A DNA stretch of 64,000 nucleotides from a virus (taxonomy: Duplodnaviria; Caudoviricetes). The stretch lies in IMG/VR virus record IMGVR_UViG_3300034101_006325, positions 1 to 64,000 of that record, one strand, 5' to 3'. A program made the position numbers and the translations under genes. The notes beneath the pieces are model-generated. The model was given only the letters and a program-made list of their open reading frames with translations. It searched no databases and had not been told where the DNA came from. This document shows positions 32,603-36,607 of the stretch, piece after piece. Within the stretch, counting starts at the first letter, position 1; every line of letters starts with the position of its first letter.

Positions 32603-35600
32603 GCCACCTTTCTCAGCTTAAAAATTGATGTTGAAAATCCCCAACTAGGATCGTTCGATGCTTGACCTACCCAAAGTGTATAAGGATCAATAGATTCCGT
32701 TGGATTACCCCAGATTCTAATCCAGCCTTGACGTGAATCATTGTCAATAGCCTTGCACCGATAGAATGCCTTTCCATTCTTTGTCTTTTTAAGGTTGACT
32801 TCAGTCACGAGAAACCAACCTATACCGTCAGAACCAGGCTGTACATCGTGCAATGATTGGACACCTTTTTCAAGGAGTTTTTTCATAATGTCGGGAGGAA
32901 ACAATAGATCGACGTCTGCTGTGGAAGTAAGATCATATGCCATGCTGATCTTTTCATCTCGCGTCCAATCTACAGTACTGGCTTGCTCCTCCAGCAACAC
33001 GTCAATTACTGGCAGCGGATCGATTCCTTCTTTTGCAAGCTTTTTTAGCTGAGCTGCAGTTAAACCATAGATTCCTTTTCGCAAGGTTTCATAATTTTTA
33101 TCTTCAGTCAAAGCCAACAATAATTGTCTGTGGTGTCTTACAGACCCTCCTTGAAAATCTTCAAGTGATTCCAGAGCTTCAATCTTGCAAAGTGCTGAAA
33201 GTGCAGTCTTATTGACCTTGCTGTGACGCCAATTTCCTTCTGCATCATAAAGCATTTCTTTGAGATTTTTGTAAGGTCTATTCTCCATAATTTCGTCGAC
33301 TGCAGTTGAACCAATACCCTTGGCTGAAGTAATAGGAGGAACAAATGCATCGGCTTTTTCAGAAAACTGCCATTCTTTACCTGAATAATTGATATCAATC
33401 TTGGAAAATTTGTATCCTAAAGACTTAATTTCACCAATTACCTTTGTCAGCTCTTTGGGATTTGAATTTGCCGACTGAAGAATCGTGGCAAGCCAGTCCT
33501 TCTCATAGTGAGTGTGGAGCCAGGCAGCATAGTAAGAGTCGATCGCATATGCGACGGAGTGTGACTTGTTGAAGCCATAGAGGGAGAAGAACTCGATCTT
33601 GTCGAACAGGGCATTGGTGATGTCCTCCGAGATTCCGTGGATCTCCTTTGCGCCCTTCACGAACTTCTCGCGGAGCATCGCCTTCTCGCCGCCCTTCTTG
33701 TCGAGGGTGTCGAGAGACTTCTTGACGAGAGTCTTGCGCATCTGATCTGACTCGCCAGGATTGAAGCCTGCAAGCTCAACGGCCAGGGACATGAACTGCT
33801 CCTGGAAAGTGATGAACCCGCGAGTCGGTCCGAGGACCTTCTCGATCAGCGGATGGTCGTATTTAATCTTGGTCAGGTCCTTGCCGGCGTCGACGTACAT
33901 GTTGTGGACGTTCGCTTTGAGGGGGCCAGGGCGATAGATCGCCGTGATTGCTGACAGGTCTTCGATGCAGTTTGGTTGAGACTGCATGCAGAACTTTCGA
34001 GCTCCCTGAGCAGTGAACTGAAACACTCCGACGAATCGTCCCTCATGGTAGACATGTTTCCAAACCTCGGGGTCGTCCTGCTTCACGTAGCGACAGTTGA
34101 GGTGCTTGTCGAAGAACGCCTTCACGTTGAGGAAGGTGGGATCAGGGTTTCCCTGGTTGACGAGGATCCGACGGATGCAGTTCTCCACGTCCTTGAGGAG
34201 CGTGAGTCCGAGGAAGTCGAACTTGAGGAAGCCGTTGTCCTCCAGGTTGCGGAAGTTCATGCCTTCCGTCCACGGGGTCTGCAGTTCGCCTCGGACGCCG
34301 ATGATGGGCATCGTGGCTGCAAGGTCGTCCGGATCTGCCACGATGACGCCGCCGGCGTGTCGACCGACGGATCGGTTCTGCATAAAGAGCGTCTCGACGT
34401 GTGCCGCGACGTCTGGGTACTTCTCCATGAATGCCTTGTACTTCGGAGAGTACTTCATGCAGTCCTCGTGCTTCAGGACGAAGACGGACTTCTCCTGATC
34501 GTCGTCGCGGGCGAGCGGCATCACCTCGTCCTGAAGCGGACCCGTCATCTCGTTCACCTCCTCGAAGGGCACGCCGTAGATCTTGGCGATGTCCTTGACG
34601 AGGGACTTGAGCTTCAAGGTGTTGAAGTTCGACACCGGGATCACAGCGTCGTCGCCGAACAGCTCGCGTGCCGAGTCGATCAGGGCATCGCGGTCGCCTG
34701 CGTCGGAGTCGATGTCGGGCCACGACACGCGATGGCGGCCTAGGAAACGGCTCCACAGGAGACCGTAAGGCAGGGGATCGATCTGAGTGATGCCGAGGAG
34801 GTAGTTGACGAGTGAACCTGCGCCTGAACCACGGCCGGGGCCGAACAGGGTCCGAGTCTCCGCCTTCTTGAAGATCTTGTACATCGTCACGAAGTAGGAA
34901 GCGTGACCGAGGTACTTGATGTCGGACAGCTCCTCCTTCACGCGGGCGACGTATTCTGGTTTGTCAGACAGGCCTTCACGAATCAGGGCCTCCTTGACGA
35001 GCTCAGTGAGCTGCTGGAATGTTGTCTTGCCTGGCATGTCCAGCTTCGGTAGCTTTGCTTTAACATCGACCCATGTATCCTCACAATGTTGCCATGCGAT
35101 ATCATGGGTCCTCTCGATGGCGTCTCGGACCTCCTCCTCGGAGCCTCGATAGAACTCGTACTGCTCGTAGGACTTCTTGTACTCGTCCCACATCTGGGAT
35201 GCATTCTTCGGATACAGCTCGCACTTAAGATCTTCGAACTTTGGAAGTGCCTGTTCGTCGAGCTTAGCACCCATCCATCCAAGCTTCTTGTAGAGCTCAC
35301 GGGCCTGCCACTTCGACGGGTCGGGATAGTGGGAATCGCAGGTGGCGAGCAGCTTGACGCCGGACTTTCGAGACAGGTCGATGAGGTACCTGTTGACCGT
35401 GTGCTGCTTCGGCAGCTTGTTGAACTGGATCTCGAGGAAGAAGTTCTCGGTCCCCACCGCATCCGTGAACCTGTCCGTGAGGTTCATCAGCTCGGAGATG
35501 ATCTGCTCCGAGTTCTTGCCGTAGGCCTCGCCGCGGAGGATCGTGCCGCTGTAGATTCCACCAAGGCAGGCCGTGGACCACACGATCCCCTTGCCGTACT

Positions 35601-36224
35601 TCCGGAGGAGGTCGAAGTCGATGCGTGGATAGCGGTAGAAACCGTCCTTGAACGACGCCTTCACGAGGCGATTGATGTTCGCGAGACCTTCGGCGGTCTG
35701 CGCCACCGCCACGAGGTGGTAGCGACGCTGCCAGTCGGGCTTCTCCTTGTAGTCGTCTGCCTTCGTCTCGTTCTCGTCCTCGACGACGTGTCCGCCGGCC
35801 TCTTCCTCCTCCACCTCGTCAGCGTCGACGTCGGTCCGGACCTTCGCCTTCTTCTCGGCCTCCGCAGCGGTCTTCGCGTCCTTGATCGCCTGCTTGTGTG
35901 CCTCGTAGTCGATCTTCCACTGTGTCAGCGAAGGAACGAAGTAGAACTCCACACCGTAGAGCTGCCGGTACTTCACGCCCTTCTTCTGCAGCTTCTTTGC
36001 TGCGGAATGAGCGTGTGCGAGGCCGTTGCCGTTGCCGTGGTCGGTCAGGGCCCACGCGTCCATCCCCTGTGATTCGGAGACAATCCACTTTATATGATCC
36101 TCGGGATAGCCAAGTCCGTCAAAAGTTGAGAAACCCGAAAAGCCGCCCCTGAACAAGCCAGGGGCGGCACCTACGAATGCGCGTGGAAACCGACGAATTT
36201 CTTCGGCGGCGTCACATCGCGCAT
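32599..36224 (-). CDS. dnaE: DNA polymerase III alpha, interrupted by a 38-nt out-of-frame insert (36136-36173)
   Basis: PHP motifs (HAH, TDHG, E, H, DSH), GRGSGAGS, PDIDSD, RHAGG, KFDFLG, FNKSH; first 14-17 codons lie in another frame (start GTG 36215 or ATG 36224, AAGGAG RBS). Confidence 0.93.
36136..36176 (-). other. candidate translational bypass (ribosome hop) element or micro-intron
   Basis: mRNA UCG UAG GU GCCGCCCCUG GCUUGUU CAGGGGCGGC UUU UCG: matched UCG codons, stop codon, perfect 10-bp stem; removal restores HAHS-GFSTFDG. Confidence 0.75.
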
Positions 36225-36234
36225 CTCCTTAAAA

Positions 36235-36264
36235 GTGTTAGATGACATGATAACAATCTAACAC
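36235..36264 (-). promoter_or_regulatory. dnaE upstream extended -10 inside a 9-bp inverted repeat
   Basis: GTGTTAGAT...ATCTAACAC flanks TG-T-TATCAT on the minus strand. Confidence 0.5.
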
Positions 36265-36355
36265 GCGAAATCTGTCGTTTACACACGGGAAGCAAATGCA
36301 GTTCGAGGCGAAACCCGAAGGAATCGCCTCAATTGCGTTTCTTTGAGGCTCTTTC

Positions 36356-36607
36356 TCAGATGTCCGTGACGGTGCCGTCTTCGTCGAGCTTGAGACCGAC
36401 ATCAAAGAGCTGCTGATCAGTGATCGCGCCTGGATACACCGCGAGTGCAGACTCGAGATCCTCAATAGAGACATAGCCTCCCTCCAAGTAGATCTCATCG
36501 AATGCGTCACGGAGCTCGAGGTTGCTTACGGATTCACGTGTCTCTCGGATTACTTTTCGTGCTTCTTCCTTGATGATGGAACGCAACTGCTTTACTGTGA
36601 TCTTCAT
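36356..36607 (-). CDS. small protein with LRSIIKEE leader
   Basis: MKITVKQLRSIIKEEARKVIRE; AAGGAG RBS. Confidence 0.75.
   Translation of the reverse strand: MKITVKQLRSIIKEEARKVIRETRESVSNLELRDAFDEIYLEGGYVSIEDLESALAVYPGAITDQQLFDVGLKLDEDGTVTDI

Follow-up and report, generated by a model that had tools for sequence, protein, structure and literature searches.

The stretch of DNA analysed here (the window) is the first 64 kb (64,000 nucleotides) of the 200,303-bp IMG/VR virus record IMGVR_UViG_3300034101_006325, from an uncultured freshwater phage (G+C content 39.5%, completeness estimate 61%). Its minus strand carries a dnaE gene, encoding the replicative DNA polymerase, whose reading frame is interrupted within motif I of the PHP domain. 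The first part of the gene, open reading frame (ORF) 1, runs from an ATG at 36248 to position 36174 (minus strand, as are all features of the dnaE site described below), comprises 25 codons and reads MSSNTFKEMRDVTPPKKFVGFHAHS. It carries the HxH metal ligands of PHP motif I and ends on HAHS at a UCG codon (36176-36174), hereafter the take-off codon. A UAG stop (36173-36171) follows immediately and opens a coding gap of 38 nucleotides (nt) that extends through a second, identical UCG, the landing codon (36173-36136). Within the gap, 2 nt after the UAG (a GU spacer), begins a hairpin with a perfect 10-bp GC stem and a 7-nt loop (36168-36142, with 36168-36159 pairing with 36151-36142; folding energy -23.8 kcal/mol), which is followed by UUU and the landing codon (36138-36136). 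Downstream come GGU (36135-36133) UUC UCA ACU UUU GAC GGA (GFSTFDG), in the frame of a long ORF that encodes the remainder of DnaE (ORF2, 36135-32599). The longest listed ORF over ORF2 starts on a TTG, spans 36156 to 32599 and encodes 1185 amino acids (aa). A 4-nt TTCG repeat flanks the insert, and the G-rich 3′ arm of the gap hairpin, examined as a possible mini-Shine-Dalgarno, ends 3 nt before the landing codon. Upstream of the gap lies a bulged 20-bp stem-loop (36225-36176, -25.8 kcal/mol, supported by folding and comparison), directly preceded by an internal Shine-Dalgarno-like AAGGAG (36230-36225). The 3′ arm of this 5′ stem-loop, CGCGCAU plus a U, reaches into the take-off codon, whose first base takes part in the last pair; the apical loop stands about 25 nt 5′ of take-off. 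A preliminary description of the locus had listed the AAGGAG, the UCG-UAG, the GU spacer, the 10-bp stem with its 7-nt loop, the UUU, the second UCG and the length and position of the gap (38 nt, 36173-36136); all these details proved correct.

The long downstream ORF encodes a DnaE. Pfam searches with the 1185-aa ORF identified PHP, pol III alpha, finger and HhH domains, and the PHP match does not begin until profile position 6. Of the PHP motifs, TDHG, VEF, HLV and CDSH are all present further downstream, as described before, and HxH is supplied by ORF1 only. Since the other ligand motifs are intact, the HxH strand should be needed. In pairs where both alleles are interrupted, the ratio of nonsynonymous to synonymous substitution rates (dN/dS) is 0.015-0.065, and for ORF2 of the window against its relatives it is 0.065-0.17; by these ratios dnaE is under strong purifying selection. 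The long downstream ORF is kept in all interrupted alleles, as far as the loci reach.

The insert is a genuine feature of this phage. Contigs from four independent lake or virome runs, belonging to four studies, bridge it entirely with at most one difference, which excludes the assembly artefact that the preliminary description had asked to check for. No contig of the four runs joins across the site without the insert, although contigs cannot reveal rare variants. In one virome contig (depth 13) the U-run preceding the landing codon is one U longer, giving a 39-nt gap; this 38/39-nt polymorphism within one phage population shifts the frame relation of ORF1 and ORF2. At least 11 metagenome runs of freshwater or lake origin, from many studies, contain the stretch. 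No RNA run is listed for it, and one presumed RNA run matched only 0.04 of its words. The gap hairpin has no other copy in the window or in the 200-kb genome, and its origin as a dispersed repeat was thereby excluded.

Comparison with related phages places the interruption in a wider context. Scans of viral and metagenome contigs yielded 160 dnaE loci with 53-83% protein identity; 149 of them reach the N-terminal motif, and these reduce to 111 non-redundant alleles, 89 intact and 22 interrupted. In 118 of the 149 loci the gene is uninterrupted and reads ...PPxRFVGLHxHSxFSxFDGLGYP with zero length variation. The remaining 31 loci (the 22 non-redundant alleles) are interrupted, always directly after one or the other Ser codon of HxHSxFS, by gaps of 5, 9, 10, 11, 12, 38, 39, 40, 42, 43 or 68 nt that represent all three frames. 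Short gaps lie after the second Ser codon: 5 nt in L085, 9 nt in the L011 group and L016, 10 nt in L002, L072/L119 and L076, 11 nt in L038, and 12 nt in the L026 group and L120. Long gaps, each with a GC hairpin inside, lie after the first Ser codon: 38 nt in the window, L110 and L111, 40 nt in L083, L084 and L086, 42 nt in L158, and 43 nt in L164 and L206. A stop codon directly follows the take-off codon in 21 of the 22 interrupted alleles, with UAG, UAA and UGA all occurring. The codon before resumption is UCN in most of them and ACG in three, and without exception a skip from take-off to landing recovers the exact consensus. A suppressor tRNA or an alternative genetic code was considered and rejected: no tRNA gene is found in the 200-kb genome, and all three stops are used across alleles. 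An exact-pattern scan of IMG/VR for both arms of the 5′ helix together found nothing, and a 15-mer scan gave 60 loci, of which only L164 and L206 are real dnaE cassettes.

The allele L080 (IMG/VR, 83% DnaE identity, positions 1060-1145) represents a third type of interruption, with a 68-nt insert at the same Ser codon. It forms a perfect 21-bp inverted repeat whose 5′ arm includes the CAT-TCT take-off codons; GCG follows, with no stop. L080 has no N-terminal extension, 5′ stem-loop or nuclease remnant. It is the sole interrupted allele with the take-off codon inside a stem and, in this respect, is nearer than the window to the A-site stem-loop of bacteriophage T4 gene 60, a known case of ribosome bypassing.

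The 5′ stem-loop with its AGGAG is, across the alleles compared, the most consistent signal of the interrupted state, a point that the preliminary description had missed. A stem-loop abutting the take-off codon is found in 20 of the 22 interrupted alleles and in none of the 89 intact ones, and AGGAG(G), AAGGAA or UGGAG stands 0-12 nt 5′ of the helix in 20 of the 22. All short-gap alleles except L085 have an ungapped helix of 10-17 bp whose 3′ arm stops within 0-3 nt of the take-off codon's end; the 5′ arm lies 37-48 nt upstream, inside the N-terminal extension, with AGGAG(G) a further 2-12 nt 5′. The 89 intact alleles show chance-level helices only (at most 9 bp, GU-rich). The 3′ arm of the short-gap alleles codes for the conserved motif, with the 5′ arm tracking its synonymous and lineage-specific changes; the arms of L038, L076, L072 and the L011 group differ in sequence and stay complementary. 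The long-gap alleles, including the window, share the bulged 20-bp hairpin with AAGGAG at its base. When its helix was aligned across seven of them, 95.7% of cells were paired, compared with 22-48% for a slid partner. Four pairs show compensatory changes and the covariation score exceeds those of all 500 shuffles, a result to be read in the light of the small sample and of a structure derived from the window's own fold. Folding z-scores, calculated on the 60-75 nt ending at the take-off codon, range from -3.4 to -6.6 in 20 of the 22 interrupted alleles (-3.7 in the window) versus -2.6 to +1.9 in the 89 intact ones (Mann-Whitney p ~4e-11).

The gap hairpin is also maintained as a structure. A C-G pair in the window is replaced by U-A in L083, and L110, L111 and L164 have gap stems of unrelated sequence, each of them perfect. 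Conservation does not extend to the U-run past the hairpin, which is missing from L083, L158, L110, L111 and L164. A search of Rfam at a permissive threshold gave a sub-threshold chance hit only, and no family, introns included. As a separate observation, the 43-nt gap hairpins of L164 (1324-1360) and L206 (minus strand) are identical but for an exact inversion of the loop and adjacent bases, which suggests that template switching or recombination flipped the hairpin and preserved the stem.

Taken together, we estimate at about 75% the probability that full-length DnaE is made by programmed translational bypassing, with the ribosome hopping from UCG to UCG over the 38 nt. The ribosome translating ORF1 would reach the UCG at 36176-36174 with this codon in the P site and UAG in the A site, the stop codon supplying the pause. 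The Ser peptidyl-tRNA would then unpair, the ribosome would slide 38 nt over the GC hairpin without decoding, the tRNA would re-pair at the identical UCG (36138-36136), and decoding would resume at GGU. The predicted product reads ...FVGFHAHS-GFSTFDG..., with the junction peptide ...FVGFHAHSGFSTFDGLGYPEDHIK, and is colinear with the 118 intact alleles. At take-off the 3′ arm of the 5′ stem-loop would be inside the ribosome, such that the structure could re-form only as the mRNA leaves the exit channel, and its refolding would pull the mRNA forward. The gap hairpin would block normal decoding and be skipped, and pairing of the anti-Shine-Dalgarno with AAGGAG, at the base of the 5′ helix, may aid positioning. 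Short-gap alleles would hop 9-12 nt, a distance close to the length of their helix arms (10-17 nt). While the individual steps are inferred, this geometry fits refolding of the exiting mRNA as the driver of forward sliding. The preliminary description had proposed such a bypass, with a UCG-to-UCG skip restoring the PHP start, and had suggested aligning dnaE from related phages. This alignment lends support to its proposal: most relatives are uninterrupted, and the 22 non-redundant alleles with gaps at the same motif show Ser take-off and landing codons, a stop after take-off, covarying stems and purifying selection.

Several observations weigh against this interpretation. The interrupted alleles are linked by a mobile cassette (see below) and are not fully independent samples, to which is added the reservation made above on the covariation score. 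L080 and L085 are interrupted yet have no 5′ stem-loop, and the three alleles with ACG land on a codon that is not a Ser codon. A weak point is the start of ORF1, where the codon in use is uncertain: ATG 36248 has no clear Shine-Dalgarno sequence, and the AAGGAG at 36230-36225 might serve GTG 36215 in the window allele, a GTG that is missing from several relatives. The nascent chain at take-off has just 25 residues, fewer with an internal start, and no peptide signal is recognisable in it. The gap hairpin starts 5 nt past the take-off codon and excludes it, unlike that of gene 60. Bypassing ribosomes were moreover reported to cope poorly with structured gaps (bioRxiv 10.1101/2024.12.09.627546), so that a 10-bp GC stem would be mechanistically demanding to slide over. 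Finally, the essentiality of DnaE is assumed, in a genome that has a PolA-like gene elsewhere.

Other explanations account for parts of these data. We see a small chance that there is no recoding, the gene being either killed by a selfish insertion or expressed as a truncated DnaE without HxH from an internal start such as TTG 36156, with the ORF1 peptide as a by-product or complementing in trans as in a split gene. Such a TTG-started ORF of 1185 aa does exist, a PolA-like gene is also present in the genome, and many bacterial DnaE PHP domains are catalytically inactive. In T4, homing-endonuclease insertions are known to split genes into working halves (10.1101/2022.08.31.505936). However, TTG 36156 sits inside the 10-bp GC stem without a Shine-Dalgarno sequence, short-gap alleles have no start codon past the gap, and each cassette supplies an in-frame, protein-conserved PPxxFVGxHxHS up to the gap. 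The low dN/dS between interrupted alleles (0.015-0.065) and the intact ORFs argue against a dead gene, all remaining PHP ligand motifs are kept, and the phage, in which the insert is fixed, abounds in many lakes. It is slightly less probable that the gap is decoded, through a -1 (or +2) frameshift at or before UCG-UAG in the window and +1 shifts or read-through in relatives, giving a DnaE with extra residues (~13 in the window) between the HxH and FDG ligands. This would agree with a dnaE frame that is open through the whole gap in the window, with the 39-nt variant and L158 (42 nt), which are in frame and in which UAG read-through is formally possible, and with a hairpin shortly past the shift site, a classical frameshift stimulator. 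Yet in L083, L084 and L086 the gap contains a TGA that is in frame with dnaE and excludes a simple frameshift in these alleles, and gaps in three frames with three different stops would require at least three different mechanisms; hence no single frameshift or read-through mechanism covers the set. Nor is there any slippery sequence at CAU-UCG-UAG or any encoded suppressor tRNA, length variation at the motif is seen in 0 of 118 intact alleles, and a frameshift leaves the mostly-Ser landing codon unexplained.

A slim chance remains for removal of the insert before translation, by RNA excision and ligation or by DNA deletion between the TTCG repeats in a subpopulation. The flanking repeat would serve the latter, the stable hairpin could act as a processing site, and a rare deleted variant would escape contigs. 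Against such removal, 0 contigs in the four runs join across the insert, and the alleles with 5-12-nt gaps have no internal hairpin or flanking repeats and show the same Ser-stop-Ser arrangement and 5′ stem-loop. There is no Rfam match, introns included, and we know of no self-splicing element as small as the 38-nt insert. It is hardly credible that the hairpin and U-run form an intrinsic terminator or attenuator limiting dnaE transcription, with the codon match being coincidental. While a GC stem followed by UUUU is terminator-like, a terminator scan did not call the hairpin, which has only 4 U after the stem, and the U-run is absent past the homologous hairpins in the five alleles listed above (L083, L158, L110, L111 and L164). 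A terminator would also leave the translation of 1185 strongly selected downstream codons unexplained. RNA excision, DNA excision and an attenuator had been raised as alternatives in the preliminary description; all fare worse than the hop.

The interrupted state is also associated with a nuclease gene. A gene whose product ends in ...LRxxYxxxIxWEGK adjoins dnaE upstream in 24 of the 31 interrupted loci and in none of the 118 intact ones. The full-length product (~300 aa) combines N-terminal motifs rich in Cys with a TPDF...YEVKG (PD-(D/E)XK) core. Its match to Pfam Phage_endo_I reaches 29.0 bits (cut-off 29.1) and that to PHROG endonuclease families E ~1e-13, and it is predicted to be a PD-(D/E)XK, T7 endonuclease I-like nuclease. 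Many interrupted loci keep only a remnant of 31-142 aa. No nuclease remnant was found in the window by tblastn, and the ORFs at 36238-36607 have no family match. Since the nuclease is present beside 24 of 31 interrupted relatives and has left no trace here, the window is, by this comparison, a nuclease-less relic of an endonuclease cassette, the second point that had been missed before.

The distribution and the boundaries of the interrupted state are those of a mobile element. On the DnaE tree it needs at least 12 changes, and nearly identical sisters differ in it (interrupted/intact: L158/L156, L016/L017, L073/L079 and L076/L075). In the L158-L156 and window-L057 alignments the upstream sequences are unrelated, identity starts exactly at the landing Ser codon, and a tract of 45-75 nt at reduced identity is followed by near-identical sequence. 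For the window and L057, its closest intact allele, the first ~75 nt are ~72% identical and the following sequence ~92-95%; the former (36135-36061) is a probable co-conversion tract. This pattern is that expected from endonuclease-driven gene conversion with co-conversion of the flanking exon. The cassette is more conserved than dnaE itself (0.81 vs 0.59 nucleotide identity, window vs L158). The KEMRDV-type N-terminal segment of ORF1 recurs in L083, L084, L158, L110 and L111 and is, on comparison of these alleles, cassette-derived. Every cassette replaces PPxxFVGxHxHS in frame up to the gap, with the protein conserved and wobble positions covarying. The comparative pattern supports arrival of the gap as part of a single mobile cassette, together with the new N-terminal segment and ~75 nt of dnaE flanking it. 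Its carrier would be a free-standing PD-(D/E)XK nuclease targeting the conserved HxHSxFSxFDG coding sequence, and the interrupted site would presumably shield the carrier genome from cutting. In the window the nuclease gene would since have been deleted, leaving the phage dependent on the hop.

Further exchanges at dnaE were noted. L084 and L085 have near-identical DnaE and different cassettes, a 40-nt hairpin gap with a 31-aa nuclease remnant in the former, a 5-nt gap with a full-length nuclease in the latter; therefore either this lineage was invaded more than once or one cassette replaced another. In the window the 5′ third of dnaE (35200-36135) has a G+C content far above the 39.5% genome average and 92-95% nucleotide identity to L057, and dN/dS and dS (the synonymous rate) over 550 codons reveal a mosaic, which suggests recent recombination between phage lineages within dnaE. 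In seven relatives (L044, L053, L054, L057, L065, L075 and L076) the dnaE match spans 4.8-5 kb vs 3.5 kb, with frame breaks 280-950 codons in. These dnaE appear to hold large extra insertions (inteins, introns or nuclease genes), which marks the gene as an apparent hot spot for mobile elements.

We tentatively propose, at somewhat under even odds, that the dnaE gaps represent a modular, portable bypass device, carried by endonuclease cassettes to keep their target gene working. A helix abutting the take-off codon, with a Shine-Dalgarno-like base, would re-zip on the exiting mRNA and drag the ribosome a set distance, about one arm length for gaps of 9-12 nt and further, with the help of a second hairpin, for those of 38-43 nt. 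A dedicated nascent-peptide signal would then be unneeded. Each cassette type has its own N-terminal extension, and the conserved portions of these extensions map to the arms of the RNA helix. If this proposal holds, bypassing would be recurrent and evolvable rather than a one-off of gene 60, and its rules would be predictable from sequence and engineerable.

Around the dnaE site, a 395-nt spacer separates the gene from an upstream epimerase gene. On its minus strand, at 36300-36330, a GAGGCGA...UCGCCUC hairpin is probably the terminator of the epimerase gene, and the spacer contains two short ORFs (36238-36510 and 36356-36607) without family match. The sequence YGTGTAAA is found at 36278-36285 (minus strand), also upstream of dnaE in L011, L016, L044, L057, L073 and L080, and, in many relatives, ~30-100 nt 5′ of the start of dnaE. 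This possible phage promoter element shows no enrichment across the window (6 matches vs 4.1 expected). The 200-kb genome has one dnaE and one small PolA-like gene as polymerase genes; the latter, outside the window at 67114-67755, is a small family-A polymerase-like ORF (419-aa open frame, Pfam DNA_pol_A 45 bits). The window has no nucleotide match in the phage GenBank collection, where the best protein matches to its DnaE are actinophage DnaE with only 26-28% identity; no cultured relative is therefore to hand.

Full-text literature searches gave no report of bypassing in dnaE, and polymerases are unmentioned in the preprint surveying gene 60 (bioRxiv). For more than 35 years, the known examples of efficient programmed bypassing have come essentially from the gene 60 family and from yeast mitochondria, and a second, unrelated family would change this picture. 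The candidate family described here sits in the replicative polymerase gene of widespread aquatic phages, with gaps of 5-43 nt and covarying RNA signals, and would provide a natural mutational series on ribosome sliding and landing, especially on the refolding of exiting mRNA. It would also show that homing endonucleases have repeatedly been paired with bypass elements to invade essential genes. In practice, gene callers truncate interrupted dnaE, which introduces wrong N-termini into annotation pipelines and protein databases.

The short-gap alleles recall the candidate 7-10-nt bypasses in the terminase gene of Streptomyces phage Hau3, for which a 5′ stem-loop and a Shine-Dalgarno sequence were proposed (PMC10732093). 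In both cases an essential phage gene has short gaps whose skipping restores a conserved protein junction, and the 5′ stem-loop with a flanking internal Shine-Dalgarno sequence of Hau3 is found in the 9-12-nt dnaE alleles and upstream of the window gap. However, take-off in Hau3 is at a rare UUA 'hungry' codon, with proposed sensing of host tRNA, in place of the stop codon in dnaE; no nuclease cassette is described there, only three genes are known, and the window gap is much longer and structured. In the mitochondria of the yeast Magnusiomyces capitatus, the 'byps' reportedly described by Lang et al. in 2014 are said to be mobile GC-rich hairpin inserts of 27-55 nt in coding genes, skipped between matched codons as proposed here. 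They reportedly occur in dozens of copies per genome and are not tied to one motif or endonuclease, whereas the window hairpin is unique in its genome. The 5-12-nt alleles are also reminiscent of the synthetic or low-level stop-hops of E. coli (Weiss et al. 1987, as cited in PMC10732093), in which peptidyl-tRNA re-pairs at a synonymous codon a few nt past a stop. While those hops are inefficient and were seen in reporters, the dnaE arrangement is fixed, in an apparently essential gene, and comes with a dedicated RNA structure.

The closest parallel is T4 gene 60, with its 50-nt bypass and MobA homing-endonuclease cassette (Huang 1988; Bonocora 2011; bioRxiv 10.1101/2022.08.31.505936). Gene 60 has matched codons, a UAG and a 5′ stem-loop, and pairing of exiting mRNA has been proposed as its forward driver (bioRxiv 10.1101/2024.12.09.627546, 10.1101/2022.08.31.505936). 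Common to both systems are matched codons for take-off and landing, a UAG that immediately follows take-off, a noncoding gap of tens of nt with a hairpin, a 5′ stem-loop upstream of take-off (apical loop ~25 nt 5′ of take-off in the window, 26 nt quoted for gene 60), a Shine-Dalgarno-like element and an N-terminal extension newly brought in by the mobile element. Each gap owes its delivery to a free-standing homing endonuclease, which is often decayed or lost, and is sporadic among related phages. The two nevertheless differ in host gene (dnaE PHP motif I vs the topoisomerase II large subunit), in matched codon (Ser UCG vs Gly GGA), and in take-off position (codon 25 vs 46), with no recognisable nascent-peptide signal in dnaE. 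The window hairpin begins 5 nt past the take-off codon and has a 7-nt loop without UUCG tetraloop, whereas the gene 60 hairpin contains the take-off codon; the Shine-Dalgarno-like element is at the base of the 5′ stem-loop in dnaE and 6 nt before landing in gene 60; and the associated nuclease is of the PD-(D/E)XK, T7 endonuclease I-like type instead of the HNH type of MobA. The candidate dnaE family spans gaps of 5-43 nt and has no sequence homology to the gene 60 element. Altogether, the dnaE gap looks like an independent counterpart of the gene 60 bypass.

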